A DNA stretch of 64,000 nucleotides from Gammaproteobacteria bacterium (GTDB lineage: Bacteria; Pseudomonadota; Gammaproteobacteria; Eutrophobiales; Eutrophobiaceae), in the NCBI GenBank assembly GCA_965215365.1, contig CBDCDS010000003.1:1664001-1728000 (forward strand), given 5' to 3'. Every line of letters begins with the position of its first letter. Within the stretch, counting starts at the first letter, position 1. The notes beneath the pieces are model-generated. The model was not told the DNA's origin and made no database searches. It worked only from the letters and a program-made list of their open reading frames with translations. This document shows, in pieces, positions 8,938-31,455 of the stretch. A program made the translations under genes and the position numbers.

Positions 8938-8974
8938 CATGGATGCCCCACAAGAATCAAAAAAGCCTGTCCGG

Positions 8975-9137
8975 TGCAGCAGATTGGTCGAGGGCGACCT
9001 GCTATCGCTGGTTGAAGCGGTATCGTGAATGTGGGCTGAGGGGTCTGGGGACTGCCTCTCGTGCGCCGCGACGGCGGCGTGTGCGGCAGCGGGCACGCCA
9101 GCACGAGCAGCAGCAGGTCTTGCACCTGCGCCAATGC
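8975..9137 (+). pseudogene. IS481-family transposase HTH fragment
   Basis: SRATCYRWLKRYRECGLRGLG..SRAPRRRRV matches the ORF at 39436-40227. Confidence 0.85.
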
Positions 9138-9180
9138 TCTGCTAGACTGACCGCTCTTGTGTAACCTGTCAAGGAGCGCT

Positions 9181-10458
9181 ATGACCACATCGTTCCCGCA
9201 TGATTTCAGTGACGAACGCTACACCGAGGCACTGTTGGGCCTGTTCAAGCCCGGCACCGGCGTGGCCCCGCCCAAGCTCGCCGGGCGCGGTGATGAGACG
9301 AAGGTCTTTGAGCGCCAGCTGTTGATCGACTTGCGCAAGGGATGCGGCCCGGCAGGGGACTTGGTGCTCTTCGGGCCGCGCGGTAACGGCAAGACGGTGT
9401 TGCTCACTGATCTCAGTCGCCGCGCCGCTGAGCGTCAGATTGACGTGGTCACGCTGACTCCTGATGAGATCGATTCCCCGCTGCAGCTAATCAGAAACTT
9501 ATTGCAGCGTCCGCCGTCGACACTGGCGTCGGGCGGGCTCTGGCTCGGGCGCTTGTTGAGGCGGCGCGCACCGCGCACACAGAAGGCCTCGGCGGCGAGC
9601 TTACGCGTGGGAGCGGGCGATCTCAGCGCGGAGCTCAGTGCTGAGCTCAGCGTTGTCTCAGACGATGAGCTCAGGGTGTATGGTGAGGCCAAGCTGACTG
9701 CGCGTTGTCGCGCACAACCGCTGTTGGTCACCGTGGACGAAGCCCATACGCTCGATATCGAGACCGGGCGCCGGCTGCTGAACCTCAGCCAGCAGCTGCG
9801 CACGGCCGATGTCCCGTTCGTCCTCATCTTGGCCGGCACGCCTAATCTTGAAGCGCATCTGGGTAAGATGAGCGCCACCTTCTGGGATCGCTCTGAGATC
9901 CTGCCGATCGGCCGGCTGAGCGCTAAGGCCACGGCCGAGGCTTTAACGACTCCGCTGGCCCAATGGTCGGTGGCTTTCGAGCCGGACGCCTTGGCGGCGG
10001 TGGTGGATGACTCACAGTGTTATCCGTATTTCATTCAGCTTTGGGGGCGGGCGTTGTGTGGCGCCTTGGTCGAGCAAGGGGGGGGGCACACAGTGACCTT
10101 GGGTCTCGTCAAGCAGGCTGCCCCACAGGTCGCGGCACGGCGCCTGCGTTATTATGGGAGGCGATATCTGGAGCTCGAAGATCGTGGCTTGCTCGAGACC
10201 GCGTCGCTCGTCGCCGGCTGTTTCGAGAAGTCCGAGCAGGTGGCCAGGGCGACGCTCAAGGCGGCGTTGGGCGAGGGGCTCGGGTCAGACGCCGAGGCCG
10301 CCATGGCGGTGCTCGGCCAACTCGCCGACTTAGGCTACACCTGGGCGCCTGACGGCGGTCGGGAGATCGAGCCGGGTATTCCGTCGCTGATGAGTCATGT
10401 GCGCGAGGCGGTCGCTGAGGAGGCGATGGATTTTCCAGAACCGCCACCGCGGCCTTAA
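9181..10458 (+). CDS. P-loop AAA ATPase (AAA_16/ATPase_2-like) with probable C-terminal winged helix
   Basis: PGTGVAPPKLAGR, Walker A GPRGNGKT, Walker B LVTVDEAH, ILAGTP, CYPYFIQLWG; RBS AAGGAG. Confidence 0.85.
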   Translation: MTTSFPHDFSDERYTEALLGLFKPGTGVAPPKLAGRGDETKVFERQLLIDLRKGCGPAGDLVLFGPRGNGKTVLLTDLSRRAAERQIDVVTLTPDEIDSPLQLIRNLLQRPPSTLASGGLWLGRLLRRRAPRTQKASAASLRVGAGDLSAELSAELSVVSDDELRVYGEAKLTARCRAQPLLVTVDEAHTLDIETGRRLLNLSQQLRTADVPFVLILAGTPNLEAHLGKMSATFWDRSEILPIGRLSAKATAEALTTPLAQWSVAFEPDALAAVVDDSQCYPYFIQLWGRALCGALVEQGGGHTVTLGLVKQAAPQVAARRLRYYGRRYLELEDRGLLETASLVAGCFEKSEQVARATLKAALGEGLGSDAEAAMAVLGQLADLGYTWAPDGGREIEPGIPSLMSHVREAVAEEAMDFPEPPPRP

Positions 10459-10592
10459 CCCGCAGATATCACCAAGTCGCTTGTTGCCTTGTGCAACATG
10501 ATTGCTCTCAATAAGTTATGGTAACCTCTAAGCCTTCATGATCAACCCCTCACACAGCACAGTCTCATAGGCATTGAACCTGAACAAAAGTC

Positions 10593-10621
10593 TTGACTGT
10601 AGAGTGGAATTGTGTTAAAGT
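10593..10621 (+). promoter_or_regulatory. Sigma70 promoter TTGACT-17-TAAAGT
   Basis: -35 at 10593-10598, -10 at 10616-10621; GAGGAG RBS downstream. Confidence 0.65.
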
Positions 10622-10673
10622 TGCGATGTCGTTCAGCTTCTATACAATCACCCGTTTACTGAGGAGAACGAGA

Positions 10674-11235
10674 ATGAAAATGAAACTTACGGTTACCCCC
10701 CCCCCCCCCCCCCCCCACACGCCCTAGCCGCCTGACGGCACCGGCCACCCTGCTGGTGGCCCTGATGCTGGGACTGGCCGGCACCCTGCCGATGACAACA
10801 TATGCGCAGGTTAATCTGTGCCCGAATGGATTGCTTCAGTTGAATAACATCTATATGACCGTAACCGTGGGTCAGAACCGAGGGTCGACATACAACCCGG
10901 ACACAGCCCAGTTTACGACCGACACGACAAAACATTCGGCCACGGTTACGGTCAGAGAAGAGCAGGCGAATCTCCTTATCACCGGCCGGGGGTACACCTC
11001 TGGCCAATTCCGTTTTGGGATGCAGGGCGAAGGCGAGGCCCTTCTCCACCACGGCGTCATGTGGTCCGCCGGGCGCCTTCACAATGGTCAGTTGTCGGGG
11101 ATTGACATTCCGATCTCTTTCCATAACCTGGAGCCGGGCACAAAGTACGCTGTGGAACTTCTTGTAGAGAATACCAATCTCCACCCTGAGCGGCGCCTAC
11201 TATTCCGGAACTGTTTCCAGACGCCCGCGCCCTGA
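10674..11235 (+). CDS. Putative secreted protein with poly-C tract in the signal N-region, out of frame as assembled
   Basis: ATG 10674, C21 at 10696-10716, TAG 10725; removing one C gives MKMKLTVTPPPPPPTRPSRLTAPATLLVALMLGLAGTLPMTTYA-QVNLCPNG joined to ORF 10756-11235. Confidence 0.7.
10696..10716 (+). repeat. C21 homopolymer
   Basis: Direct count. Confidence 0.95.
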
Positions 11236-11329
11236 CCCCACGCCCTTCCTGCTGCTAGCGACTATGCTGGCACCTGCGGCGGTGACGGCGCAGATGGTTG
11301 GAGGCAGTGTCTGCCCGTCAGGCACGTTT

Positions 11330-11455: not shown

Positions 11456-11596
11456 GTGATGGCGCTCTCGTCCATGGCGTGTGGCTTCACATGGGGACAG
11501 TTCGCAGTGGTCAGCTAGGAACGCACCTTTATGCGGGATAGAGGTGGTCGGTACATCCATGTTACTTTATACTCCTGGTGTTTCCGTGAGTAGAGC

Positions 11597-12115
11597 ATGT
11601 CCGAGAGAGCATTCAAACCGTTAAATATCGCCGTGCTGGTGGTTTCCGATTCGCGCACGGAGAAGACCGACAAGTCCGGGAAACTGCTGGTTTCCAGGCT
11701 GGAGGCGGCGGGACATTGCCTCTATGAAAAGTCTATTGTGCCGGATGACTGCCATCAAATTCGCGCACAGGTGGCGCGCTGGTGCGCCACCTCGGATGTG
11801 GACGCAGTGCTGGCTACCGGCGGCACCGGCGTGACTGGTCGCGACGGCACGCCCGAGGCCGTTGCGACGCTGCTCGACAAGCAAATCGAAGGTTTCGGCG
11901 AGCTGTTCCGCCACCTGTCCTACCAGGAAATAGGCACTTCATCCCTGCAATCACGCGCCTTGGCCGGCGTTGCCAACGGCACATATATTTTTTGTTTGCC
12001 GGGCTCTGCCGGCGCCTGCGCCACGGCCTGGGACAAAATTATCTCGCAGCAACTGGACTATCGTACCCGACCCTGCAACCTGGTGGAACTGATGCCCAGA
12101 CTCAAGGAACACTGA
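11597..12115 (+). CDS. moaB: Molybdenum cofactor biosynthesis protein B
   Basis: VSDSRT..TDKSG, TGGTGVTGRDGTPEA, GFGELFR, QSRA, LPGS, PCNLVEL. Confidence 0.95.
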   Translation: MSERAFKPLNIAVLVVSDSRTEKTDKSGKLLVSRLEAAGHCLYEKSIVPDDCHQIRAQVARWCATSDVDAVLATGGTGVTGRDGTPEAVATLLDKQIEGFGELFRHLSYQEIGTSSLQSRALAGVANGTYIFCLPGSAGACATAWDKIISQQLDYRTRPCNLVELMPRLKEH

Positions 12116-13110
12116 TGGCACTGGCCGCCGGTCAGGCTCACCGGGCGATACGACTGTGCCGGTCTTGCGGCCGGTTGCCGGGACGTTTGTCAGCGTATCT
12201 TTGTATGACGCTTGCGCTGGTGTGTTTGTTAGCGACGTTCCCGCTGCGGGCGACCGGGTCTTTTACCCTGGCGCAGCCAGTTGACTCGGTGGTCGGCGCC
12301 ATTCGCACTGTTACCGCCCGGCACGAAGACACGCTCCCGGACCTTGCCAGGGCGCATGGCCTGGGTTTCCAGGAAATTAAACTGGCCAACCCGGAGGTGG
12401 ACACCTGGTTGCCAGGGCAGGGCGCCGGGATTGTGCTGCCGACCTGGTATGTGCTGCCCGAGCCGCCCCATGTCGGCCTCGTGCTGAACATACCGGAAAT
12501 GCGCCTGTATTATTTTCCCGCCCAGGAACCGGACCAGGTGGTCACTCATCCGATCGGGGTAGGGCGCCAGGGTTGGGTTACCCCGTATCTCAATACCCGG
12601 ATTATCGAAAAGAAAACCCGTCCTTACTGGTATCCGCCCGCATCAATCCGCAAGGAACACGCCGAGCAGGGTGACCCGCTGCCGACACGGGTGCCGCCGG
12701 GGCCGGATAACCCTCTGGGAGACTATGCGCTGAGATTAGGCTTGCCCGAGTATATTATTCACGGCACCAACAAGCCCTACGGTATCGGCCTGCGGGTCAG
12801 CCATGGTTGCATCCGTTTATACCCGGAAGATATAGCCAGCCTGTACCAGCGGGTGGCGCTGTACACGCCGGTGCGCATCATCAACCAGCCCTACAAAGTC
12901 GGCCGGCGCGGCAATAAACTGTACTTAGAAGCCCATCCCTACCTGGAGGAAGATGCGGCGCAGTTCCAGGGTAGCCTGACCAGCGTGGTTAAAAGCCTGA
13001 TAAAAATTACCGGTGAGGACGCCTACGAGATAGACTGGAAACTGGCACAATCCGCCATCGACCAACGCGACGGCATTCCGGTTGCGATCGGCAGGTTAGT
13101 GGATAATTAA
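12115..13110 (+). CDS. L,D-transpeptidase (ErfK/YbiS/YcfS family)
   Basis: ANPEVDTWLP, PPGPDNPLG, IHGTNKPYGIGLRVSHGCIRLYPEDI; TGATG coupling to moaB. Confidence 0.93.
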   Translation: MALAAGQAHRAIRLCRSCGRLPGRLSAYLCMTLALVCLLATFPLRATGSFTLAQPVDSVVGAIRTVTARHEDTLPDLARAHGLGFQEIKLANPEVDTWLPGQGAGIVLPTWYVLPEPPHVGLVLNIPEMRLYYFPAQEPDQVVTHPIGVGRQGWVTPYLNTRIIEKKTRPYWYPPASIRKEHAEQGDPLPTRVPPGPDNPLGDYALRLGLPEYIIHGTNKPYGIGLRVSHGCIRLYPEDIASLYQRVALYTPVRIINQPYKVGRRGNKLYLEAHPYLEEDAAQFQGSLTSVVKSLIKITGEDAYEIDWKLAQSAIDQRDGIPVAIGRLVDN

Positions 13111-13166
13111 CCCGCAGCCTGACCCAATCCGGCGCGATCTTCGCATCACTTGGTGAGAGCTGCGGG
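13111..13166. mobile_element. 56-bp MITE (CCCGCAG...CTGCGGG) with TTAA duplication
   Basis: TTAA|CCCGCAG...CTGCGGG|TTAA; other 56-bp copies at 14880-14935 and 29632-29687. Confidence 0.8.
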
Positions 13167-13170
13167 TTAA

Positions 13171-13245
13171 GGGTGCCATCTGAAAATTAGAGATGCCTAT
13201 GCAGCACAGGGACGTGCTGCCATTTTTAATCATGCGAGTGATTCC
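13171..13245. mobile_element. Degenerate end of the 151-bp MITE
   Basis: gggtgccatctgaaaattagagatgcctatgcagcacagggacgtgctgccatttttaa resembles 57490-57548. Confidence 0.7.
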
Positions 13246-13354
13246 GACGATGTTATAAAAATGGTGTTACACTGGAGCTTCATGGCACAGGGTTGTACCG
13301 TTTCAAACCAAACATCAGCAAAAAGGGAGATGTAGCTCTCCTGTGGAGGAGATC

Positions 13355-13618
13355 ATGACTGAAAAAACAGATACTCTTGATGACAATATCAATGCATTTC
13401 AGAAGATATCCGATGAGTTACATGAACATCATTTGGGCAAGTTTGTTTTGATGCACAACAGTCAGTTCATTGCATCGTATGACAATTTCGACAATGCAGC
13501 GAGGGCGGCAATAGAGAGGTTTGGCAGAGGCCCTTATCTGATTCGTCAGGTTGGCGCTCCGACTGAAATGACTTTGCCTGCCTCCATTGCTTACCGGCCG
13601 GATTATGCCAATCATTGA
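13355..13618 (+). CDS. Small DUF5678-like protein
   Basis: HHLGKFVLMH...FDNAARAAIERFGRGPYLIRQVG pattern; overlaps the protease gene. Confidence 0.65.
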   Translation: MTEKTDTLDDNINAFQKISDELHEHHLGKFVLMHNSQFIASYDNFDNAARAAIERFGRGPYLIRQVGAPTEMTLPASIAYRPDYANH

Positions 13619-14051
13619 AGCCGGATTTATAAGTGATGATGGTAAACCGGACCCGGCTGCATTGGTTCGGTTTGGCCCGACTATTAAGGTTTTCGCAGGA
13701 CACTTGAAATCTGGCGGCAGTTCCAATTCGGTTACGGATGAATTTGTTCACGCATTGATTGACACCGGTGCCACTGAAAGCTGTATCGACATCTCTTTAG
13801 CGCAAAAGCTCGAACTCCCTGCTGTAGACAGAATAACTATTTCCGGTGTGGGTGGGACAAAGGTACACGATATGTACATGGCGCAAATTCATATACCGCA
13901 GCTTAATTTTACGCAATATGGCAAATTCTCTGGTGTGCAGTTGGCAGGCGGGGGGCAGCAACATTACGCGCTGTTAGGCAGGACTTTTTTGCGAGGAACC
14001 ATAATGATATATGACGGAATAAGGGGTCAGGTTACTGTAACCACTTCGTAA
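13605..14051 (+). CDS. Clan AA (retropepsin-like) aspartyl protease
   Basis: ALIDTGATESCI catalytic motif and ALLGRTFL. Confidence 0.85.
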   Translation: MPIIEAGFISDDGKPDPAALVRFGPTIKVFAGHLKSGGSSNSVTDEFVHALIDTGATESCIDISLAQKLELPAVDRITISGVGGTKVHDMYMAQIHIPQLNFTQYGKFSGVQLAGGGQQHYALLGRTFLRGTIMIYDGIRGQVTVTTS

Positions 14052-14124
14052 AAGTAGCAAATATTGCTCCCGGCAGGCCGCCTACGAACACCATCGTCGC
14101 CACCAGAACAACGCTCGTATTCAT
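14032..14124 (-). CDS. 30-aa hydrophobic peptide
   Basis: GAGGAG RBS then MNTSVVLVATMVFVGGLPGAIFATFTKWLQ*. Confidence 0.45.
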   Translation of the reverse strand: MNTSVVLVATMVFVGGLPGAIFATFTKWLQ

Positions 14125-14192
14125 TCAATCTTTCTCCTCAGGGCTTGCTGCCCGGATTAACAATAAACCAAGCAGCCTGACCCAACCATCTG

Positions 14193-14303
14193 CTACTCGG
14201 CGGGCGGGGCGGCGCGCTTTTTGCGGGTGCGATGGGCCAGATAGCTGAGCGCTGCACCGCCGGCGAGCAAGGTCAATAGCGGGGCCAGTATGTTCCAGGC
14301 CAT
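14193..14303 (-). CDS. 36-aa single-TM peptide with basic tail
   Basis: MAWNILAPLLTLLAGGAALSYLAHRTRKKRAAPPAE*; TGATG overlap with upstream ORF. Confidence 0.55.
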   Translation of the reverse strand: MAWNILAPLLTLLAGGAALSYLAHRTRKKRAAPPAE

Positions 14304-14469
14304 CAGTTCTCCAGGCTGCCGGCCACGCTCAGGGCCAGACCGCTTATCACGATCACCACGCCAGGCCCGGCCAGACTGGCATCGAGCGCCCCGGCAATCA
14401 GGCCGGTGGCCGCCACGATGGCGCCGGTCTGGCGCAGGCCGGCGCCGATATGGTCGGGTTGATATTCAC
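14303..14469 (-). pseudogene. About 55-aa two-TM protein needing +1 nt near its start
   Basis: GTG AAT ATC AAC then shifted frame PDHIGAGLRQTGAIVAATGLIAGALDASLAGPGVVIVISGLALSVAGSLEN*. Confidence 0.45.
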
Positions 14470-14493
14470 GGGTGAAGTATAATAGAGGCGCCC

Positions 14494-14775
14494 TTATTTC
14501 TGCATCGCCTTTTCAAACATGCGATCCAGCTTGCTTGAATTTTCGCTGCAGCAGGCATTTGCCGCGTCCGCCGCCGCCTGGGCCGCCCTGGCGGCATCCA
14601 TAGCCTGATCGGCTGCTGCCGTAGCGCTATCTGCTGCTGCCGCCGCCGCTGCCGCTGCCGCCTGTGCGTTTTCTGCCATGGATTTAGCCTCATTCACTTG
14701 CTCGACCGTTGCGCATCCCCCCAACAGCATCAGCACGGCTGCAAAAAATGTGACTTTGGTTAAAGTGTTTTTCAT
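14494..14775 (-). CDS. Lpp/OprI-like alanine-zipper lipoprotein
   Basis: GGAG RBS, lipobox LLGGC, poly-Ala coiled coil, KLDRMFEKAMQK with C-terminal Lys. Confidence 0.88.
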   Translation of the reverse strand: MKNTLTKVTFFAAVLMLLGGCATVEQVNEAKSMAENAQAAAAAAAAAADSATAAADQAMDAARAAQAAADAANACCSENSSKLDRMFEKAMQK

Positions 14776-14879
14776 ATCATATTCTCCAGTTTGCCCGGTT
14801 ACAGTAGTGGATTCGAGCGGGTATTGTAGCAAATTATCAGGTTAAAACAAGCAGTAGTGGCGGCAGTTGTATTGTCTGG

Positions 14880-14935
14880 CCCGCAGATCTCACCCGGTGA
14901 TGCGAAGATCGCGCCGGATTGGTGCTGCCTGCGGG
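14880..14935. mobile_element. 56-bp MITE copy
   Basis: cccgcagatctcacccggtgatgcgaagatcgcgccggatt...ctgcggg. Confidence 0.75.
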
Positions 14936-15301: not shown

Positions 15302-15444
15302 AAAAAATTCCTCATAGCATTAACTCGTAGTATTGCAGGCACCTCTGACACAAACCACCCGCGAACCATTCTACCCGACCACGGGTTTATTGCAAGGGAA
15401 ATCCTCAGCGACGCAGGCGCGCAGGCACTTTCGCACGTGTGTCA

Positions 15445-25100: not shown

Positions 25101-28100
25101 GTCCCCAAGGGGCAGGCGGCGGGGACTTATACCGGCACGGCGACGGTGAAGGTCAAGACGGCCCAGGGGAACGACACCAAGGAGGTGCCCTTGAGCGTTA
25201 AGGTCTATGCGGTGCAGATTCCCGATGCCAAGGACAGCGAGTTCTTACAGTACAACTGGACGGAGACAAACATGTACTCTATCCGCAATGAAGAGGACAT
25301 GGGGCGCTCGTACTACGGGATTGACAAGTACTCCGATGACTGGTGGGGCTTAATGGGCAACATGGCCGATACCATGTCCAAGCATCGTCAGAACATGACC
25401 ATTGCCTGGACGGTGGCACTGCTGCGCGACGGCGGCACTAAGGCCAAGGCCGATGGCACGTATGAGTGGCAATGGGGGCTGTTCGATAAGTTCATCGACA
25501 CTTATAACCAGCGCGGCATGACCCACTTCGGCGGCGGGCATTTGTCGTTGCACTGGACCGGGCAGCCCGGGAGTTACAATATCCAGCATGCCCTCCAAGT
25601 GGCGCGCCTTGCGCCCGATGCGAACGGTGAGACACGCATCGCCGGCGCCCTGGTGCCGACCTCGACGAGCAATGCCGACGACGAGCGCACGGTGGCCCGG
25701 GATTGGCTCAATGCTTATCTGACGGCGCTGAATACCCATATTAAGGCCAAGACCTTGATGGATGGCGTCACCACCCTGCGCAGCCGCTGGTTTCAGCATC
25801 TCGGCGATGAGCCGCACAAGGACGAGCATGTCCAACAATGGGGCTATATGGCGGACACGCTCAAGGTCAAGGTGCCGCAAGTGCGCAACTTAGATGCGAC
25901 GCATGATGGCACAGCAAAACTCTTGCAGGATGCTTACAAGCCAAAAGTGACGGCCTGGAGTCCTTATCTCGACGACTTTGACCGGCGCAAAGACTTATTT
26001 GCCCAACAGCAACAGGCCACCAAGCCGGTGTTTGTCTACGTGATGCTGATTCCCCGTGAACAGGAGGACTATAACCGCCTGTTCGCCAACCACCTGGTAT
26101 CGACTTCCACGCTGTATTGGTATTACTTCCGCCATAATGTGGACGGCAATTTGCACTGGGCGCTGAACGTGTGGTCCATCGGGCCGGATGGCCGCTCTAA
26201 AGGCGATACCCACATTGTCTATCCGGACATCGGCGGGCGCACGCTGCGCTCATCGCTGCGCTATGAAGCCGAGCGTGGCGGGCTGGAGGACTTGGAACTG
26301 TTGAAGCTGTACAAAGCGACCTCTGCCAGCGCCGCCAACACACTGGCTGAGAAGCTCACCACCACGACCCGCACCAACCACAACAAGGATGTGTCAACGT
26401 ACCGCACCGTGCGTACCGAGTTGCTGGAGGCTGTAGCGCCGCCCCCCGTCGCCGCCGTCACCATCGCCGCTACCGACACCACCGTCACCGAAGGCGATAC
26501 CAGCGCCACGGCGACCTTCACGGTAGTACTGGACGCCGGGCCGTCCGCCGATGTCACCGTCACCGTCACCGCACCCACTGGCTTAGAGCTCGACGGCCCG
26601 GACAGCGCCACCACCTTCACCTCCAGCGAGGCGCTGACCTTCACCGACAGCACCTGGAGCACCGCCCAGACCGTCACCGTGCGCGCCCCCGACGACAGCA
26701 CCGACAGTCCCAGTCAACCGGAACTGACCGTCACCTACGCCACCACCTCGACCGACAGCGACTACAGTGGCCTGACCGGCGATGCCGCCACCGTCACCGT
26801 CACGGATAATGACGCCACCGAGGTCACCTTAGCCGGTAGCGCCGGGGATGTCACCGAGGGCAACACCAAGGAGTTCACCGTCACTCTGGGTCGCGGTCTG
26901 GTCAATGGCGAGACGCTGGCCGTACCGATGACCTTCGGCGGTGATGCGACGCAGGGCACGGACTACACGACGGCGTGCGAGTCACCGCTTCCGACCGGGG
27001 TAACCTGCGCGAACCTGGACATCGGCAACGCGGCGGTGACCTTTACCGGTGCGAGCGGGCGCACGACGGCGAAGACGGTGACGCTGACCTTAACAGCGAC
27101 CCCCGACAACACCGCGGAGGTCGGTGGAGAGAGTGTGACCATTGGGTTAGGCACGCTTAACGCCCGCTCTGGCACCGGTCTCAATGGCGGCGCTTCGGGC
27201 ACCGACAGTCTGGCTGACTTTGACATCATCGATCCAGACACCACCGCGCCGACGGTTGAGATCACCGGCGTGCCTGAGAAAATTAACGCCCGTGACCCGT
27301 TCACGGTGACCTTTACCTTCTCTGAAGCCGTCACTGGCTTTGCTGCCGATGACATCAGTGTCACCAACAACGCCAACAAAGGCACGTTCACGGAGACCAG
27401 TGCCACGGTCTATACCCTCACGGTCACGCCCACCGCCGATGCTGATGTGAAAGTCACAGCGCGCGCCAATACCGCCACCGATGGCGTGAACACCGGCCCG
27501 GCCAACGCCGTGAGCGACACCGCCATCTGGGATGCCAGTGTCCCGACCGTGACCATCACCGGCGTGCCTGCTGAGATTCTTAACCGTGACCCGTTCACGG
27601 TGACGTTCACCTTCTCCGAAGACGTCACCGGCTTTGCTGCCGACGATGTCAGCGTCACCAACGGGGATAAGAGTGCATTCGCCGGCAGTGGCGCCAGTTA
27701 CACTCTCGCCGTCACCCCCAACGCCAACGCCGATGTGACCGTCGGGGTCGCCGCCAATGCCGCCAGTGACGGTATTAACACCGGCCCGGTCTCAATGGTG
27801 GCCCAGACCGCCGAGTGGGATGTGGATGTGTCGTTCTCCACGAACGCCGCCAGCATCACCGAAGCCAACGGCGCCGAGGTGTCCCTCACCGTGCGCCTGA
27901 CCTCGGCGCGCGCGGCTGCCACGGTGGTGTATATTCAATACCAGGATATCACCGCCACACGCGCCGGCAATGCCGACTACACCGGTAGCCCGACCTCGAT
28001 CACCCTCCCCGCCGGGGACACCCGCGCCACGCTGACCATCCCCATTACCAACGATGATGCCACCGAGTCCACCGAGACCTTCTTAGTGCGCCTGCTCGAT

Positions 28101-28586
28101 ACGCAACTGCCGACCGGTGTCACCTTGGGCAGCCCGCGCGAGGTGACCGTGACCATCACCATCACCGATGATGACGCCCCACCGGCAGCACCGGGTGCGC
28201 CCACCGGCTTGACCGCCACCGCCGGCGATAGGCAAGTGGTGCTCGCCTGGACGGATCCGTCCAACGCCGACATCACCGCTTGGGAAGTACGCCAGGGCAG
28301 TGGCAGCCCGCTGAGCTGGGGTAGCTGGACGGAAATTGCCAGCAGCACGGCCACGACCACGACGCACACCGTCACCGGCCTGACCAACGGCACGGCTTAC
28401 AGCTTTGAGCTGCGCGCCAAAGCCGGCACGGTCATCTCTGCTCACGCTGCCCGTAGTGGCGCTGGCGCACGAGCCGTTATGGGTGCCGGTCACCCCCGCC
28501 GGCGTCAGCCCGTGCGAGCTGCCCCGGGCGCACTGCCCGCTCTCGTTGCGGCGTATCCACAGGCACCTCAGCGCAGCAGTACTTGA
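16131..28586 (+). CDS. Giant secreted multidomain protein: unknown N-terminal domain, about 3 discoidin/CBM32-like domains, 2x[Calx-beta, CBM-like, 2 Ig (He_PIG), GH123/DUF4091], FN3, Calx-beta and Ig repeats; 3' end broken near 28437
   Basis: 4151-aa ORF; ATSDGTATAGSDY (Calx-beta), LPTGLQWDPKERTISGTPT (He_PIG), RNEYESGQ..PDPL..DE..GYLHW..SSLRYE..RGGLEDWE (GH123-like), TPGDGQVTLTW..LTNGTAYSFEVRA (FN3). Confidence 0.85.
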   Translation: MSMIRMMYRTAGFAHRPALAGLLLSVGVVLAVSGLLRAGPVATPGARLTAGDLTVSMDETGLITGLTAPSGRDYHVNEPPTALLSLIVEDKPTDLPSAGTAAHYRPLRWRFTPGTPQLGETARGTYTFDFAEHLSVTVAFVEKPGYATLAVTALHNPAGKDVRHILWGPLSTSITESVGETVGVVRGRDFAMGLFGTNAKTLGGWARAYPATGLKSLAAGEDTAGDVRTVAQDFATAAAVRTVPGSILQAHTQDYTQGRMVEVAPTGGQEGRRRWVPALTGEFATAGQLVGSQVALFGVAGTDAAGVTHASRREALYAKVLARIGAIEVGEGMPHPQLDKVWAKQALRANAPYLLLEDLDSHNLDTALRWANELGWDTVAKDACWGVFARGGDFPISDAFGGSDNALRSVIERAQSRHTTLGVDIRSNWLPAPYATTHLGGLAAAQHATLAAPVTATATTLTVAPLPGGDLQPGFATTGYVVIGTELMGYTETTPVAENLVLSGLTRGVDATLAQGHAADAPVKRVIRKTQCGEYLAGLTLMRGRVAERLIEVLDLGLGGVSLSGAEALAADGYGALAANLVMDKIYRALAGHDNLITELSVLTPYTWHVNTRAGAVNQDRRILSSGLAAPQVSYPWGAQVSARRNYLARPMLGRWHIPDANGWRWALGKAAALDAGLAYVGRVRDAARHDAPLRREIRHWRYAALAGAFDAPNRLVMQEQGAYFKLDRVSHTGSIGPTWKLSDWAPLGAAGGQRRNSRYLAPQLRGFPTANLARDAEVTVSGALAPEFDGAHALDGFTVTGHDGGAGEWALAAGAREKWIELTWETPRRVREIILFDRASPQQNVRAGSLTLTRADGTTTTQRVDALPLTGGAKRIALSDQALVKARFTLHATQGAAPGLAEFAVLGPAPVYQVSNLATGAVVSGVAAGQGARITDGVIAPGAEPAATLTGAFAQLDLGGLHYIGGLTVWHAFGDGRRYQDVVFELADNPAFTNSTIVFNNDADNSLGLGAGTDAPYTETAAGKQVLFAPTPARYLRLWSQGNTVNDANHLVEVEVYGAGHGTAAATLSASSTAPGDLRAAIDGHPDTAIDLGTGPQYLQLDLGTPRQVNSLVVLREGDLRAYRNVVYQLSNDADFADTVTTVFHNDYDAVHGLGLKEPSQGEYAETPNGHYVRFAPRPARYVRLYSNGSDRDRHNRYHEVLVGTEHATRLPTPTPAWAPAESAPADNTARADNAAQQGAPPGAPIPGPAARGGGGLGARALPTARQTALELSINNVAVTEGATAYFTVTLSKAHTADVTVQAATSDGTATAGSDYTAKTATLTIDAGATSATFAVATTADSIAESSETIKVTLSNSSGGATIKSGAGVGTATLYDGGGGFVNDNDSAVSYENGSNGTGVAWFYGARHGGDFNSYDNDGYVTSRPGAYFEYTFTGTGVDFISETNKDHGEVDLYIDGAKVARVSLNSATRVGKVLAYSVRGLSLGEHTIKGVKVGSGTPSNYLVVDGFFVYAPLDFVTWHLPRELRYMKGEAILAPTRLPRVDGGTGTVTYALTPTLPTGLQWDPKERTISGTPTADKARAQYTMTATDAASRTATYTFHLTVSATDNKPTFGNKTQDDLLLKKEAAMTTVTLPAATDGDGSLTYQLLPLKWTNIGGDYVPQPANTPLDYTGVANLPAGLSFDIDARELSGTPTEKWTRGQYTLVATDADGDTAALSFHLGVVDTLTPATPSSVLKMWTADALTRINDDATGPNSPSTRIDLHAVRNEYESGQVVLRSNADLTITEVAFTDLTSGSNTIAKSHLNYHFAEYHVPVMPTHPNITGEKHRPIYPYFKRRPDPLSNARSIVVPANVTQPIFVKVYVPKGQAAGTYTGTVTVKVNTAQGNDTKTVSLSVKVYAVEIPDAKDSGHLQYNWANTNIYSIENTSDFGFEYYGIAKYSDEWWELMGNMADTMVAHRQNVALLWTVSQLRDGGTKVNADGTYDWNWGLVDEFVDLYHSRGITHFGGGHLARHWKGQPGTYAYGRANGLVLLTRDSVSGETLVDRGDISTSLSNENSHPTSRNWLNAYLAALNTHLKSKTLPGGTKLFDRWYQHVWDEASTSSQWAYLADKIEQHAPGLETIDALARETTFNGLKTAANVGKVKNWVPLLDAVYKEDTKAFFRGQRQAGKKVFAYVVGTIPKAPDELNRELGNHLLAMTMMSWYLNREQLDGYLHWALNAWSYGFHRGDTTITYPDVAGRTLKSSLRYESERGGLEDWELLTLLRDSNDAKADELIAEVLPATGLGYTQDVSLYRSVRTELLGALTGAPGRFTATPGDGQVTLTWADLSDDTITQYQYRQGAGTPVTWGDWAGVPNSSATTTSHTVTKLTNGTAYSFEVRAVRGATPGPASAVVSATPGALPELSINNAAVTEGGTAYFTVTLSKARTANVTVQAATSAGPATAGSDYTAKTATLTIATGSTSATFAVSTTADSIAESSETFKVTLSKPNGGATIKSGAGVGTATLYDGGGSVFVNDNDSAVNYENGGSSSGVKWTDDTGRNTSAFNNYNKDAYVTNRPGAYFEYMFTGTGVDFISESHAGHGEVDIYIDDAKVARVSLYNATRVGKVLAYSVRGLSLGEHTIKGVNVDSGTPSNYLVVDGFFVYAPLDFVTWHLPRELRYMKGEAILAPTRLPRVDGGTGTVTYALTPTLPTGLQWDPKERTISGTPTADKARTQYTMTATDAASRTATYTFHLTVAAADKKPTFGSKTQADLLLKRGTAMSTVTLPEATDGDGTLTYQLLPLKWSNMGYNQGVRENNQPLDYAGVANLPAGVSFNATTRVLSGTPTANWTRALYTLVATDTDGDTAALNFHVAVVTALTPATGSSTLEVWTDDALSHVNRDATKPNSPSTDIDLHAARNEYESGQIVLRSDADLTITEVAFDDLTDGSNTIAKTHLDYRFVEYHVPVMPTRTTQLLYPANNRPDPLSNARSIVVPANVTQPILVTAYVPKGQAAGTYTGTATVKVKTAQGNDTKEVPLSVKVYAVQIPDAKDSEFLQYNWTETNMYSIRNEEDMGRSYYGIDKYSDDWWGLMGNMADTMSKHRQNMTIAWTVALLRDGGTKAKADGTYEWQWGLFDKFIDTYNQRGMTHFGGGHLSLHWTGQPGSYNIQHALQVARLAPDANGETRIAGALVPTSTSNADDERTVARDWLNAYLTALNTHIKAKTLMDGVTTLRSRWFQHLGDEPHKDEHVQQWGYMADTLKVKVPQVRNLDATHDGTAKLLQDAYKPKVTAWSPYLDDFDRRKDLFAQQQQATKPVFVYVMLIPREQEDYNRLFANHLVSTSTLYWYYFRHNVDGNLHWALNVWSIGPDGRSKGDTHIVYPDIGGRTLRSSLRYEAERGGLEDLELLKLYKATSASAANTLAEKLTTTTRTNHNKDVSTYRTVRTELLEAVAPPPVAAVTIAATDTTVTEGDTSATATFTVVLDAGPSADVTVTVTAPTGLELDGPDSATTFTSSEALTFTDSTWSTAQTVTVRAPDDSTDSPSQPELTVTYATTSTDSDYSGLTGDAATVTVTDNDATEVTLAGSAGDVTEGNTKEFTVTLGRGLVNGETLAVPMTFGGDATQGTDYTTACESPLPTGVTCANLDIGNAAVTFTGASGRTTAKTVTLTLTATPDNTAEVGGESVTIGLGTLNARSGTGLNGGASGTDSLADFDIIDPDTTAPTVEITGVPEKINARDPFTVTFTFSEAVTGFAADDISVTNNANKGTFTETSATVYTLTVTPTADADVKVTARANTATDGVNTGPANAVSDTAIWDASVPTVTITGVPAEILNRDPFTVTFTFSEDVTGFAADDVSVTNGDKSAFAGSGASYTLAVTPNANADVTVGVAANAASDGINTGPVSMVAQTAEWDVDVSFSTNAASITEANGAEVSLTVRLTSARAAATVVYIQYQDITATRAGNADYTGSPTSITLPAGDTRATLTIPITNDDATESTETFLVRLLDTQLPTGVTLGSPREVTVTITITDDDAPPAAPGAPTGLTATAGDRQVVLAWTDPSNADITAWEVRQGSGSPLSWGSWTEIASSTATTTTHTVTGLTNGTAYSFELRAKAGTVISAHAARSGAGARAVMGAGHPRRRQPVRAAPGALPALVAAYPQAPQRSST
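19945..26430 (+). repeat. Tandem intragenic duplication of an approx. 3.4-kb module
   Basis: About 19945-23045 vs 23339-26430; block 20551-20941 is near-identical to 23953-24343 (offset 3402 bp). Confidence 0.9.
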
Positions 28587-28683
28587 GACCGATCAGGCGG
28601 CGCTGGATTACTGGCAGCGGCGCCTGCGCATCTGGTACAGCTTTAACCCCGACTACCGCCACCACCTGCATCCGCACCGCTAG
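28437..28683 (+). pseudogene. 5'-truncated small secreted-protein gene fragment
   Basis: LLTLPVVALA-HEPLWVP... signal-like stretch lacking a start, fused out of frame to the giant gene. Confidence 0.35.
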
Positions 28684-28719
28684 ACCGCCCTGTCTTATTC
28701 GTTGTTCTTCCCATGGCGC

Positions 28720-29455
28720 CCAAGGCCGTCCCGACGGCGCCGCCGATATGGTACAGCTGGGCTCGCCGCACCGGATGAGGACTATCTACCGTACCAACAT
28801 CGAGGTCGGCGTGGCACACGGGCGCTATCGCCGTCAGGTCGATAACGCCCAAAATCGCCCGTACTGGAAGTACGAGGCCATCATGGACGCCGCCACCCGA
28901 CCCGCCCACGCCGCCATGCACGGCAAAGTGTTCCGGGCCGACGATCCGATCTGGAAAACCCACTACCCGCCGAACGGATTCGGCCGCCGCTGCTCGGTTA
29001 TGGCATTGACCGAACAGGAAATGGAAAAAGAAGGACTGAGCGTCTCGGACAGCGCCGGACACCTGCGCCCGGTCGAGCAGCAGGCTGGAGTCAACCAACG
29101 CACCGGTGAGGTCGTCACCGTGCGCGGCACACAGTACCGGTTCACCGGCACCGATGGGCAGGCACGAGTGATGATCCCGGACCCGGGCTGGAACTACAAC
29201 CCCGGCTATGCGGGCGGCGCCACCACCCGGCGCCTGCCTAAGAAGATAACGCCACAACAGACCTTAGCCGACGAGCTGGGCAAGATCAGTGTCCCCAAAC
29301 TGGAAGGGGCGCCGCCGGCTATCGCCCGCGCGCAGGTGCAGGACTTGTTACAGGCACCGCGATTCGACGCCGCAGTACAGGCGCGCACCGTCGGCAACTG
29401 GCCGATGGCGGACATCTCCACGGGCTCCCCGGCACAATCCGCTATGGATAGCTAG
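28720..29455 (+). pseudogene. Mu gpF-like minor head protein, N-terminally truncated
   Basis: VQLGSPHRMRTIYRTN, RPYWKY, TRPAHAAMHGKVFRADDPIWKTHYPPNGFGRRCSV (usual CRC here RRC), PDPGWNYNPG. Confidence 0.85.
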
Positions 29456-29497
29456 GTTCTACGGCCACCCTGGGCTCTACCTCACTTCCCAAGACAC

Positions 29498-29527
29498 AGT
29501 ATAGAACAATTCATACCAGGAGATCAA
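29498..29527 (-). promoter_or_regulatory. Sigma70-like promoter TTGATC-18-TATACT
   Basis: -35 at 29527-29522, -10 at 29503-29498; 6 bp from IS end. Confidence 0.45.
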
Positions 29528-29631
29528 CCATGATGTTCAGGTTCAATGCCTATGAGACTGTGCTGTGTGAGTGGTTGATTATGCTCCGTCTGCAAATGAA
29601 CAAGCACCGCCTTCCGGCGCTCAGAGGTTAA

Positions 29632-29687
29632 CCCGCATATCTCACCAAGTGATGCGAAGATCGCACCGGATTTTTTACGCCTGCGGG
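29632..29687. mobile_element. 56-bp MITE copy inside the IS derivative
   Basis: ttaa|cccgcatatctcaccaagtgatgcgaagatcgcaccggatt...ctgcggg. Confidence 0.75.
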
Positions 29688-29786
29688 TGCCTGCGAACGA
29701 AAGCATAGCGGTAGCTGAGGTTACCATAACTTATTGAGAGAAATCATGTTTCACAAGGCAACAAGCGACTTGGTGATATCTGCGGG

Positions 29787-31048
29787 TTAAGGCCGCGGTG
29801 GCGGTTCTGGAAAATCCATCGCCTCCTCAGCGACCGCCTCGCGCACATGACTCATCAGCGACGGAATACCCGGCTCGATCTCCCGACCGCCGTCAGGCGC
29901 CCAGGTGTAGCCTAAGTCGGCGAGTTGGCCGAGCACCGCCATGGCGGCCTCGGCGTCTGACCCGAGCCCCTCGCCCAACGCCGCCTTGAGCGTCGCCCTG
30001 GCCACCTGCTCGGACTTCTCGAAACATCCGGCGACGAGCGACGCGGTCTCGAGCAAGCCACGATCTTCGAGCTCCAGATATCGCCTCCCATAATAACGCA
30101 GGCGCCGTGCCGCGACCTGTGGGGCAGCCTGCTCGACGAGACCCAAGGTCACTGTGTGGCCCCCCCTTGCTCGACCAAGGCGCCACACAACGCCCGCCCC
30201 CAAAGCTGAATGAAATACGGATAACACTGTGAGTCATCCACCACCGCCGCCAAGGCGTCCGGCTCGAAAGCCACCGACCATTGGGCCAGCGGAGTCGTTA
30301 AAGCCTCGGCCGTGGCCTTAGCGCTCAGCCGGCCGATCGGCAGGATCTCAGAGCGATCCCAGAAGGTGGCGCTCATCTTACCCAGATGCGCTTCAAGATT
30401 AGGCGTGCCGGCCAAGATGAGGACGAACGGGACATCGGCCGTGCGCAGCTGCTGGCTGAGGTTCAGCAGCCGGCGCCCGGTCTCGATATCGAGCGTATGG
30501 GCTTCGTCCACGGTGACCAACAGCGGTTGTGCGCGACAACGCGCAGTCAGCTTGGCCTCACCATACACCCTGAGCTCATCGTCTGAGACAACGCTGAGCT
30601 CAGCACTGAGCTCCGCGCTGAGATCGCCCGCTCCCACGCGTAAGCTCGCCGCCGAGGCCTTCTGTGTGCGCGGTGCGCGCCGCCTCAACAAGCGCCCGAG
30701 CCAGAGCCCGCCCGACGCCAGTGTCGACGGCGGACGCTGCAATAAGTTTCTGATTAGCTGCAGCGGGGAATCGATCTCATCAGGAGTCAGCGTGACCACG
30801 TCAATCTGACGCTCAGCGGCGCGGCGACTGAGATCAGTGAGCAACACCGTCTTGCCGTTACCGCGCGGCCCGAAGAGCACCAAGTCCCCTGCCGGGCCGC
30901 ATCCCTTGCGCAAGTCGATCAACAGCTGGCGCTCAAAGACCTTCGTCTCATCACCGCGCCCGGCGAGCTTGGGCGGGGCCACGCCGGTGCCGGGCTTGAA
31001 CAGGCCCAACAGCGCCTCGGTGTAGCGTTCGTCACTGAAATCATGCGG
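29787..31048 (-). pseudogene. Near-identical AAA-ATPase copy lacking the native start and frameshifted near 30160
   Basis: Reverse complement matches 9196-10458; G7CC vs G9C gives a 1-nt deletion. Confidence 0.9.
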
Positions 31049-31053
31049 ACACC

Positions 31054-31245
31054 ATGAAATCAAACGACACGCACCTGGAGCAGGCCATCGAGAGGCTGAA
31101 GTCTCAGATGGAAACGCAGCAACGGTACATAGATGATTTAGAACTGCGACTGACTAACCTGACCGTTGACCTCTATGGGCATCTGGCCAAATGGAAAACT
31201 GGCCAGCGAAACAAAGATGTAGGCCGACGGCAGGACTCTCGATGA
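31054..31245 (+). CDS. 63-aa coiled-coil hypothetical protein, separated from its RBS by the IS derivative
   Basis: ATG lies in the CCATGA duplication; AGGAG at 29518-29522 is 7 nt upstream in the reconstructed empty site. Confidence 0.6.
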   Translation: MKSNDTHLEQAIERLKSQMETQQRYIDDLELRLTNLTVDLYGHLAKWKTGQRNKDVGRRQDSR

Positions 31246-31455
31246 ACATATCACTGATTTTTTGAACGAGCGTCGATGACGACTAAAACAGAACTCGATG
31301 TCAGCGTCGAGCAAGAGGATGTCATCCTCACACTCCGGGTGCGCTGGCCGGCCGCCTCGTTCCTGGCTATCGCACGTCAGGTGCACGAGGTACTGCACCC
31401 GGTGCGCACCATCCGGCCAGAGCGCCCGCCCATTGAGCATCAGGACAGCGATTAG

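Follow-up and report, generated by a model that had tools for sequence, protein, structure and literature searches.

One described example of a mobile insertion cassette (MIC) is MIC231 of Bacillus cereus. MICs and MITEs derive from IS elements, lack a transposase and can be activated by a cognate IS (PMC3129680). IS481-type transposons with cargo are already known, as in TnRErm46 of Rhodococcus equi (PMC6794481), and most IS481 members make 6-bp target duplications (PMC10045372). TIMEs, miniature elements derived from Tn3, generate mosaic non-autonomous transposons (PMC4133298). Here we describe two related units, A (8968-10586, plus strand) and B (29534-31051, minus strand), in a window of 64,000 nt, the whole stretch of gammaproteobacterial DNA that was analysed. 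We propose, at a probability of roughly 0.7, that they are two insertions of one non-autonomous IS481-derived cassette, similar to a MIC and without its own transposase. In common with MICs and MITEs, the units have IS-derived termini, no transposase gene, a passenger apparently unrelated to transposition, target duplications and a cognate IS in the genome. They differ in having one full inverted repeat with a 6-7-nt tip at the other end, in belonging to the IS481 family and in carrying as cargo an AAA+ ATPase that is one of 15 paralogues. TnRErm46 likewise has IS481-type ends around cargo, several copies per genome and direct repeats at its junctions, but it is autonomous through its own ISRe46 transposase and spans 6.9 kb with seven ORFs, whereas A holds a 160-nt transposase fragment and one gene. 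TIMEs also have non-autonomous ends that bracket and move unrelated DNA with a transposase supplied in trans; they belong to another transposon family with another mechanism, and their mobility was captured experimentally, whereas that of A and B we infer.

The sequence-only reading had reported two near-identical ATPase copies, and alignment bears this out: approximately 1.33 kb is common to both at 99.5% identity, together with a 50-nt right end (inverted-repeat pairs A/B 9188-10084/30160-31056, 10079-10528/29717-30166 and 10537-10586/29534-29583). Over the ~1,333 nt that align base by base there are five substitutions and one G-tract difference, and overall the copies differ by seven changes and a 133-nt indel. 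The features of the window are as follows.

8962-8967, plus strand: left target duplication of A, AAAGCC, with one mismatch to the right copy
8968-8974, plus strand: left tip of A, TGTCCGG, the first 7 nt of the IS left inverted repeat (TGTCCGGGTTCAG...)
8976-9134, plus strand: internal IS481-like transposase fragment in A, IS positions 246-401 at 87% identity, from the HTH-coding part
9135-9180, plus strand: leader of the ATPase gene in A, with an AAGGAG ribosome-binding site at 9171-9176
9181-10458, plus strand: ATPase gene of A, intact, 425 aa (P0001), with a G9 tract at 10078-10086
10456-10524, plus strand: ~70-nt dispersed repeat that begins at the ATPase stop codon (hits to unit positions 1489-1557)
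10537-10586, plus strand: right end of A, the last transposase-remnant codons and the right inverted repeat, ...CATTGAACCTGAACA
10587-10592, plus strand: right target duplication of A, AAAGTC
15401-15673 (about), minus strand: relic of another ATPase paralogue, with a 'type 1' promoter leader
29528-29533, plus strand: low-side target duplication of B, CCATGA, with an AGGAG ribosome-binding site just before it
29534-29583, minus strand: right end of B, right inverted repeat region, 96% identical to that of A
29584-29716, minus strand: 133 nt found only in B, a REP-like element and ~45 more nt of the transposase 3' remnant
29787-31045, minus strand: ATPase remnant of B, without the first five codons, the leader and the ribosome-binding site
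31046-31051, minus strand: left tip of B, TGTCCG
31052-31057, plus strand: high-side target duplication of B, CCATGA, which holds the ATG of a 63-codon ORF (31054-31245)
39147-40281, minus strand: full-length 1,133-bp IS481-like copy, one of 26 in the genome, with its frame shortened to 263 aa

The leader of A is of 'type 2', also found in paralogues p265, p267 and p269, and the dispersed repeat that follows the gene has well over 100 copies genome-wide. The ~45-nt transposase remnant within B's extra 133 nt occurs a second time, downstream of paralogue p586. B's reading frame is shifted because its G tract (30160-30166) differs in length from that of A, which leaves an open frame at 30149-31063 only. 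As read from the DNA, B is a truncated, frameshifted pseudogene and the gene in A is intact.

The strongest evidence for insertion comes from uninterrupted sites. The different 6-bp flank repeats were read where they had been reported, but this criterion alone does not go beyond chance: in a genome-wide scan, the combination of a TGTCC tip and a 6-nt flank repeat stayed within chance (shifted-flank controls gave 0-2 perfect and 2-14 one-mismatch cases), so we place the weight on the empty-site comparisons. For A, the uninterrupted site is C3:621.3k in the same genome, the same promoter region running through caagaatcaaaAAAGTCttgactg, with 11 of 12 nt identical left of a single 6-mer and 94% identity over 179 nt to the right. 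This site is paralogous, not allelic, and itself lies ~100 nt from an ATPase paralogue, p621. For B, the homologous site in the related genome G006 is 91% identical over 130 nt up to a single CCATGA and then continues with no insert, and no homologue of B's high-side flank was found in G006 beyond 8 nt. At the locus of A, a mog-like gene comes next after the efflux gene in all four relatives compared (G006, G005, G008 and G018), and both the unit and the poly-C gene are missing from the interval. The insert boundaries of A and B are the break points of homologous uninterrupted sites, each of which collapses to one copy of the duplicated 6-mer. These alignments support the earlier view that the unit entered two places as one block. 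The mismatch within A's duplication counts against the cassette, as do the paralogous nature of A's empty site and the short homology of B's high-side flank. B separates the ribosome-binding site before one CCATGA from the ATG of the small ORF after the other.

The claim that IS481 ends surround both copies stands for the right ends, whereas the left ends consist of tips of 6-7 nt. One boundary of each copy is the exact last base of the IS right repeat. The terminus of A and B is ...CATTGAACCTGAACA, that of the active IS ...TATTGAACCTGGACA, and the same ~9 nt are missing from both units when the active IS is taken as reference. These shared changes had been called diagnostic, but they also occur outside A and B: C3:773.9k and 2042.6k have the short deletion too, and CTGAACA is seen again at C3:2042.6k and in paralogue p664 at its 3' end. 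A, B and the sister paralogue p586 have the same downstream arrangement of transposase remnant and repeat. Comparison of these termini shows the right ends to be true inverted repeats that belong to a diverged IS481-like subfamily. A's left boundary is set independently by the empty-site comparison. In B, the CCG of the tip is common to ATPase codons 5-6 and could equally be ATPase sequence, so that TGT alone is unaccounted for by the gene, which counts against the cassette. The fragment at 8976-9134 was considered as the IS left end of A and rejected, given that it matches the HTH-coding interior of the 1,133-bp IS. It is colinear with the IS(1-440), right repeat and leader found upstream of p267 and p269, minus ~83 nt that include the proximal right repeat.

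Twenty-two of the 26 full-length copies of the 1,133-bp element have an intact transposase frame (334-356 aa), which makes mobilisation of the unit in trans by the resident transposase plausible. Domain searches of the transposase give HTH_32 and rve_3, with rve under its cut-off, and IS481 as the top NCBIfam match. Flank repeats of 5 or 6 bp accompany 17 of the 26 copies and also small non-autonomous derivatives, namely two 49-bp mini-elements and one 588-bp derivative. Since the genome contains no full-length copy of the variant subfamily closer to A's fragment (the best match is 87-90%), recognition of the variant ends by the resident transposase is assumed, a point against the cassette. 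The cassette would have arisen from a precursor as in p267 and p586, with an internally deleted IS shortly before the ATPase promoter and a solo right repeat after the gene. With the proximal right repeat lost, a single unit would have remained that had the IS left tip at one end and the distal right repeat at the other, and one of the 22 intact IS copies could have supplied the transposase in trans, leaving 6-bp target duplications. A would then have entered the upstream region of the poly-C-tract gene, and B would have landed ahead of the small ORF, splitting its ribosome-binding site from its start codon. The left repeat may have been reduced to 6-7 nt after insertion, or in the donor or during copying if a tip-only end is tolerated. 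To our knowledge, such left ends are far below the size of any repeat known to bind a transposase, which counts against the cassette, and because one end of each copy is a tip of this kind, A and B may both be immobile now.

The timing of this loss separates the cassette as proposed from a variant of it that is possible, although we hold it only tentatively. It is improbable that two deletions arising independently after insertion would both stop at the tip no more than 1 nt apart, which counts against the cassette as proposed. The units may instead have moved with a 6-7-nt left tip already, or through early template switching in replicative copy-out, such that an IS481-type transposase finishes with one full and one minimal end. 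The near-equal tips (7 and 6 nt) are joined at different points, in A to IS position ~240 and in B to ATPase codon 5-6, with short homologies at both joints (GG and CCG). The first 7-9 nt of A do not come from IS-internal sequence and the TGT of B is absent at the matching place in A and in the two paralogues read there (p1319 and the relic), so both tips would come from the true IS tip; if mobility is limited to tip-bearing derivatives, the shared tip is explained. However, scans anchored on either repeat found other tip-only units with a flank repeat no more often than by chance, and in the related IS3-family transposases inner repeat positions are needed for binding.

The cassette also has to be seen against the wider ATPase family, of which the genome holds 15 full-length, diverged paralogues, with identities down to 34%. 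In one lineage-specific, well-supported clade, 9 of 11 G000 members have IS-derived ends or tips within 300 bp, whereas none of the three members outside it (p129, p481 and p550) has an IS tip within that distance. Of the partial IS-derived loci, 7 of 31 have an ATPase paralogue no more than 300 bp away, where 0.33 would be expected. In other genomes the tie does not hold in general: an IS481-like transposase lies within 4 kb at only 1 of 75 family loci. The earlier suggestion of IS-borne amplification is thus retained for the clade expanded here and not for the family as a whole. Recombination and tandem duplication among paralogues are also evident (a 2,267-bp triple array and the p1317-p1319 pair), and leader type does not follow the gene tree. 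One lineage of the family probably expanded here through repeated capture by IS-derived ends along with tandem duplication; ordinary hitch-hiking on a mobile element seems to have helped the family to multiply in this genome.

A less likely reading, slightly behind early tip-only movement, is that at the family level the IS pieces beside the paralogues reflect repeated independent insertion at a preferred target upstream of promoters, or selection, with no co-mobilisation. In three 'type 1' paralogues a spacer of 5-6 nt, different in each (AGCTTA, GTCTA and CCCTA), separates the end of the right repeat from the same -35-like TTGACT, and identity to the active IS is 90-97% for the IS pieces, whereas the genes have only 57-82% protein identity to A. 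Against this, A and B moved with the gene inside, they share their downstream repeat arrangement with p586, and of the full-length IS copies just 1 in 26 has a paralogue within 300 bp. None of the four upstream IS derivatives beside other paralogues has a flank repeat, its own or at unit level, compared with the 17 of 26 full-length copies; this speaks against independent insertion and also counts against the cassette.

That the second copy arose without transposition, through ectopic recombination, another segmental duplication or an assembly artefact, with flank repeats by chance, is very improbable. The chance-level flank-repeat scan and the recombination among paralogues would allow it, and B's junctions were not seen when looked for in public-run contigs, which counts against the cassette. 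However, both boundaries match breaks in uninterrupted sites with exactly one 6-mer duplicated at each, and one boundary per copy is the last base of the IS right repeat. The seven changes and the indel, whose A-type version (8 letters in place of B's 133 nt, joint 29583->29717) is found in contigs of four of four public runs, argue against a collapsed or duplicated assembly.

The cargo is predicted to be an ORC/Cdc6- and STAND-like AAA+ ATPase with a C-terminal winged helix, in line with the AAA_16/ATPase_2 type proposed from sequence. The best Pfam family of P0001 is AAA_22 (E 5.7e-10), with no match to PF01637. In the fold search, P0001 is closest to the archaeal ATPases 2qen (Z 21.9, rmsd 4.1, 317 aligned) and 2fna (Z 20.6; Foldseek E ~1e-9 to archaeal ATPases), and not to TnsC, MuB or IstB. 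PAB2304 (2qen), SSO1545 (2fna) and Orc1/Cdc6 share the AAA+ core, lid and C-terminal winged helix with P0001 along almost its entire length, but these archaeal 'Walker-type' ATPases and Orc1/Cdc6 have only 12-16% sequence identity to it, and the cargo genes are bacterial, stand-alone and multi-copy, with no origin-related context around them. The protein probably works as an ATP-driven DNA-binding switch. As the family is multi-copy elsewhere without IS481 nearby, the ATPase is most likely carried along as a passenger, with no part in transposition. That it is a working transposase partner, cassette-supplied in trans for target choice or regulation in the manner of TnsC, MuB or IstB, is the least credible reading: it shares with them the AAA+ fold and the neighbourhood of AAA_22, a clan that also includes transposition ATPases, TnsC (Z 15.1-15.5) and MuB (Z 14.7) are among its fold matches, and the paralogue linkage to IS-derived ends is non-random, but its gene is missing from all 26 autonomous IS copies, the fold is matched better by archaeal ATPases, NB-ARC and ORC (Z 18-22; ORC2 18.2), the 15 paralogues are strongly diverged, and the family thrives without the IS, with 13 ATPase matches and no match to the 1,133-bp IS in G006 and 74 of 75 loci elsewhere without an IS481 transposase within 4 kb.

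A third, diverged relic of the same IS derivative had been placed at 15445-15585. No IS tip lies near it and this assignment was rejected: the relic is a paralogue that has lost its interior, keeps a promoter leader of its own and has no IS ends, with ~36 N-terminal codons (from 15585) fused to ~25 C-terminal codons.

Two near-identical copies, A and B, of an IS481-derived unit with an ATPase gene lie in the window (G000:C3:1664001-1728000) of a 2.73-Mb genome of 58% GC. They are defined jointly by three inverted-repeat pairs obtained in a repeat search of the window, and their extents come from base-by-base reading.

The two copies, the intact gene and the repeat pairs (window coordinates)
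8968-10586, plus strand: copy A, base-by-base reading
29534-31051, minus strand: copy B, base-by-base reading
9181-10458, plus strand: ATPase gene of A, intact, 425 aa, AAGGAG upstream
9188-10084 / 30160-31056: inverted-repeat pair 1
10079-10528 / 29717-30166: inverted-repeat pair 2
10537-10586 / 29534-29583: inverted-repeat pair 3

Alignment of the 1,333 truly homologous nucleotides (A 9196-10528) shows five substitutions between the copies and one difference in a homopolymer: the G tract is nine long in A (G9, 10078-10086) and shorter in B (30160-30166), which shifts the frame of B. B also lacks the leader, the ribosome-binding site and the first five ATPase codons, and its open frame ends at 30149; hence, it is a pseudogene as assembled. 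In the part between gene and right end, 133 nt of B (29584-29716) stand in the place of 8 nt in A. The A-type 3' version is present in all four public runs whose contigs were aligned to 11501-31500; among the 14 joints listed for these contigs none skips B, and none of the contig pieces listed crosses the junctions of B.

A BLAST search of the unit against the whole genome defined a resident IS481-like element of 1,133 bp with 26 full-length copies. Its termini, TGTCCGGGTTCAG... and ...TTGAACCTGGACA, are TGT...ACA inverted repeats as in the IS481 family, with a left repeat of TGTCCGGGTTCAGAAACAAGTGAGACTC... and a right repeat of ...GAGTCTCATATGTATTGAACCTGGACA. The transposase frame is 334–356 aa long in 22 copies and 255–263 aa in four, including the window copy at 39147-40281. 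The IS481 model NF033577 is the best NCBIfam match of the transposase (E 1.1e-53, 182.6 bits) though below the curated cut-off of 224, so the element is probably a distant member of the family. Against Pfam, HTH_32 and rve_3 exceed their cut-offs, and rve (28.5 bits, cut-off 32.6) and LZ_Tnp_IS481 (20.1, cut-off 22.2) fall below them. Flank repeats of 5 or 6 bp occur at 17 of the 26 full-length copies, as well as at two 49-bp mini-elements and a 588-bp deletion derivative, in agreement with the 6-bp target duplications that PMC10045372 attributes to most IS481 members.

The sequence-only reading had placed IS481 ends on both sides of the unit, and this is right for one side. The right ends of A and B are complete right repeats of a diverged IS variant (...CACACAGCACAGTCTCATAGGCATTGAACCTGAACA), while the left ends consist of 7 nt (A) or 6 nt (B) and do not form an inverted repeat. 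Two end changes that had been taken as diagnostic of A and B are shared more widely: the short deletion recurs in relics at C3:773.9k and 2042.6k, and the G-to-A change (CTGAACA) is also found at 2042.6k and at the 3' end of the ATPase paralogue p664. On the left, A starts with TGTCCGG, a 7-nt tip (the outermost nucleotides of the IS end repeat), and then jumps to IS positions 246-401 (87% identity), a 159-nt fragment from the HTH-coding interior of the element. B starts with TGTCCG and passes directly into ATPase codon 6; only the TGT is unexplained by ATPase sequence.

The flanking 6-mers were as first reported, AAAGCC/AAAGTC at A and CCATGA/CCATGA at B. Genome-wide, a TGTCC tip with a flank repeat is not rare by chance, given that shifted-flank controls give 0–2 perfect and 2–14 one-mismatch cases; flank repeats were therefore dropped as a stand-alone statistic and uninterrupted sites were sought instead. 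For A, the 179 nt to its right recur at C3:621356-621531 with 94% identity, and this locus continues leftwards as caagaatcaaaAAAGTCttgactg, with a single AAAGTC and no interruption; 11 of the 12 nt preceding the 6-mer match the left flank of A. The site is paralogous, not allelic, and lies approximately 100 nt from the ATPase paralogue p621. In all four related genomes compared (G006, G005, G008 and G018) the efflux gene (window 7633-8937) is followed by the mog-like gene (11597-12115), and both unit A and the poly-C-tract gene next to it are missing between the two. For B, G006 has a syntenic region in which the counterpart of 29404-29533 keeps 91% identity as far as CCATGA and, past this one 6-mer, runs as AAAAAG... 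into an ORF with no insert. This site is homologous, not allelic, and the high-side flank of B matches G006 for 8 nt only. At B itself an AGGAG ribosome-binding site precedes the first CCATGA and a 63-codon ORF (31054-31245) begins in the second, which indicates that B split a start region and duplicated six bases. The claimed target duplications thus collapse to one 6-mer in both cases, albeit at homologous, not allelic, sites, and a strain without B would be expected to read ...GGAGATCAACCATGAAATC... with one 6-mer and a strain without A ...caagaatcaaaAAAGTCttgactg....

With their boundaries set by the uninterrupted sites, both units begin with the IS tip; the chance of A starting with the 7-nt tip is approximately 6e-5 (4 to the power -7). 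We consider A and B to be insertions of one IS481-derived cassette moved in trans, with a probability of roughly 0.7. A composite transposon in which A and B moved the intervening 19 kb is rejected, as A and B are each flanked by a separate duplication and their complete repeats point inward.

The tip-only left ends can be read in more than one way. The left repeat may have been truncated in the donor or during replicative copying, with a tip-only end tolerated by the transposase. Alternatively, both left repeats may have been lost by two deletions after insertion, which would have ended within 1 nt of one another. The tips of A and B meet different internal points, at short homologies (GG; CCG). 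The choice of a look-alike left end inside the donor is excluded, because the first 7–9 nt of A do not align to IS-internal sequence and because A, the paralogue p1319 and a decayed paralogue in the window read GTTCCCG, not TGTCCG, at the joint of B. These odd ends could serve for asking what minimal end an IS481/IS3-type transposase needs.

The make-up of the cassette can be compared with that of the ATPase paralogues elsewhere on the contig. Upstream of p267 and p269 there is IS(1-440), a 17-nt right repeat and 25 nt, followed by a leader and ribosome-binding site. The upstream part of A is colinear with this region minus approximately 83 nt that include the proximal right repeat, and its leader and ribosome-binding site are those of p267/p269. 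Downstream, A, B and the sister paralogue p586 have a common layout of approximately 45 nt of transposase 3' remnant and then the right repeat. In the simplest reading, the precursor would have been an internally deleted IS upstream of the ATPase gene with a solo right repeat downstream, and with the inner right repeat lost, the left tip and the distal right repeat would have become the two ends of a cassette.

Fifteen full-length ATPase paralogues, 34–100% identical to A, are found in the genome in addition to one relic, and they include a triple tandem array and a tandem pair. The array (C3:265383-271158) consists of three copies, with a 2,267-bp period, of IS(1-440), the 17-nt right repeat, leader, ATPase and approximately 500 nt; between the members of the pair, p1317-p1319, lies a 50-bp mini-element that consists of the two repeat tips. 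At C3:584700-586930, an internally deleted IS precedes p586 and two tandem right repeats follow it, and the whole is bracketed by direct copies of the right repeat plus approximately 170 nt (CTCATCGTGAACACTTGA...); this locus looks like a decayed tandem duplication of the unit and its flank. The relic (15401-15673, minus strand) had been interpreted as a third, diverged cassette. It has a 'type 1' promoter leader, approximately 36 N-terminal codons from 15585 and approximately 25 C-terminal codons, with no IS tip within 3 kb, and is instead a decayed ATPase paralogue.

The main contig has 31 partial IS-derived loci, of which 7 are no more than 300 bp from a paralogue, compared with 0.33 expected (binomial P of approximately 3e-8); these loci are not all independent, and taking them as approximately four independent cases gives a rough estimate of 3e-4. 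The count is BLAST-based and was preferred to one of orphan 13-mer tips (314 clusters), which similar but unrelated repeats inflate. A quick tree of 40 rows (SH-aLRT support), which leaves out B, the relic and two of the G006 matches, places A, p586, p664, p2541, p1319, p621, p265, p267, p269 and p1317 in one clade (support 99). Five proteins of closely related assemblies also belong to it, and the G006 copies lie elsewhere in the tree. IS tips occur within 300 bp of 9 of the 11 clade members in this genome (B counted). Outside the clade, p129, p481 and p550 have no IS tip within 300 bp, and the only such sequence near p1635 is a full-length IS in opposite orientation at a distance of 259 nt. 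Simple repeated IS insertion beside the paralogues, rather than co-mobilisation, is still a live explanation of these pieces: the upstream IS derivatives are highly identical to the active IS and have differing spacers. However, none of the four upstream derivatives has flank repeats of its own, which argues against it.

Beyond this genome the ATPase family is large and shows no general tie to IS481. The closest orthologues, P0002 and P0003, are 82% identical and come from contigs of 0.44 and 1.14 Mb. Among 7,999 candidates scored there were 1,153 matches to the ATPase at E <= 1e-3, and uncultured Gammaproteobacteria, Spirochaetia, Vicinamibacterales and others carry it in multiple copies. In G006 the ATPase has 13 matches and the resident IS none. 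Of 75 loci in other genomes, only 1 has an IS481-like transposase within 4 kb. At this locus (L045, a public MAG contig of an uncultured gammaproteobacterium) the transposase (6107-6817, 87% protein identity to the resident) lies at the end of the contig, approximately 1 kb downstream of the ATPase homologue. A search of the 75 loci returned no conserved neighbour gene; the largest neighbour cluster covers 14 loci, and many neighbour ORFs may be spurious in high-GC DNA. When ten neighbour examples were compared with Pfam, seven had no family and the other three matched unrelated ones (transport permease, RTX/FG-GAP, glycosyl hydrolase 4). In another assembly, one contig of 303,127 bp holds at least 15 distinct ATPase homologues, 42–47% identical to A, an extreme local expansion of the family.

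The ATPase of A matches AAA_22 in Pfam (E 5.7e-10), with AAA_16 just under the cut-off and no other Pfam family. No NCBIfam model matches at cut-off, PADLOC gives weak, sub-threshold matches only, and nSTAND5 and nSTAND6 are below their cut-offs. A sequence search of solved structures returned generic P-loop matches only (spastin, p97), and the protein-atlas neighbours are likewise generic (AAA_22, AAA_16, KAP, BrxC and nSTAND1). The AlphaFold model, built with 53 homologues, has a pLDDT of 87.5 and a disordered loop at 114-149; Walker A (GPRGNGKT, 65-72) and Walker B (DEAH, 186-189) are invariant across the 53 sequences. Two archaeal ATPases head the fold matches, 2qen (Z 21.9; rmsd 4.1 with 317 aligned) and 2fna (Z 20.6), followed by plant NLR NB-ARC modules (Z 18.6–18.7) and archaeal Orc/Cdc6 (Z 16.5–18.2), all above TnsC (Z 15.1–15.5) and MuB (Z 14.7); IstB is not among the 50 fold matches listed. 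The model aligns over its full length to 2qen, 2fna and 1w5s, with an AAA+ core, lid and C-terminal winged helix. The earlier assignment to an AAA_16/ATPase_2 type with a winged helix, not IstB/TnsC, is favoured by this ranking, and the cargo is, as modelled, an AAA+ protein of ORC/Cdc6- and STAND-like type whose C-terminal part is a winged helix; the fold suggests an ATP-driven DNA-binding switch. STAND NTPases of the NB-ARC type have their NTPase module joined to sensor repeats and/or effector domains, whereas the 425-aa protein ends after the winged helix. Furthermore, TnsC/TniB, MuB and IstB are encoded beside a transposase, whereas none of the 26 full-length IS copies carries this ATPase.

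Mobile insertion cassettes (MICs), which are transposase-less IS derivatives with passenger genes, form an established category, as do ISs that carry passenger genes (PMC3129680). IS481-family transposons with cargo are also known, with TnRErm46 as the example (PMC6794481), and a further analogue is provided by Tn3-derived miniature elements, which mobilise mosaic DNA (PMC4133298). Like a MIC, the unit contains no functional transposase (A has only the 159-nt internal fragment, B none) and has a target duplication with a collapsing empty site, in this case by homologous, not allelic, sites. A transposase acting in trans might come from the 22 intact frames, a candidate source, and would have to recognise the variant right end and the tip-only left end. 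A MIC has an inverted repeat of a known IS at each end, whereas here only the right repeat is complete and just 7 nt (A) or 6 nt (B) of the left one are present; without two full repeats the unit fails one defining feature. Judged by its sequence, it appears to work like a MIC. In the literature searched we found no IS481-derived cassette carrying an AAA+ ATPase.

On this reading, the empty-site comparisons would document a transposase-less IS481-family cassette with a host-type gene, and IS-end capture with tandem duplication would be a concrete route for expansion of a widespread, uncharacterised ORC/STAND-like ATPase family. Apart from the cassette, this route and the tip-only ends, the region is an ordinary product of an IS-rich genome. 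A bolder reading, which we regard as quite improbable, is that the ATPase is no passive passenger and that its lineage was repeatedly captured and spread by IS481-derived ends, with cassettes moving on a 6–7-nt tip. If true, it would amount to an unrecognised, possibly ATPase-assisted, minimal-end transposition mode for IS481-type elements, and could help explain why the family is multi-copy in uncultured bacteria of several phyla. Minimal-end transposition and participation of the ATPase in its own spread are both unlikely.

The window has several other features. Shortly after an ATG at 10674, with an apparent signal-peptide-coding start, there is a run of 21 C (10696-10716); the frame from this ATG meets a stop as assembled, and a long ORF (10756-11235) follows in a different frame. 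The gene (10674-11235) probably encodes a phase-variable secreted protein, and its promoter and 5' module recur at C3:621356-621531, beside p621. The module at 29404-29533, approximately 130 nt ending in a ribosome-binding site and ATG, is found in tandem in G006 (L021) ahead of different small ORFs and partly at C3:650.7k, and is apparently a portable promoter/start cassette that serves small variable genes. A REP-like repeat of approximately 70 nt (10456-10524), which starts with the ATPase stop codon, is present in well over 100 copies, of which some form arrays with a 243-bp period; another, of approximately 95 nt (29628-29722), occurs with 84–93% identity in most genomes of the genus. Between A and B, a 4,151-aa ORF (16131-28586) with two internal repeats of approximately 3.4 kb, 72–89% identical, looks like a very large surface protein. 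Finally, six to seven tandem 21-bp repeats (GTTTATCTACGTCGCCGAATC) at 61903-62055 are iteron-like.
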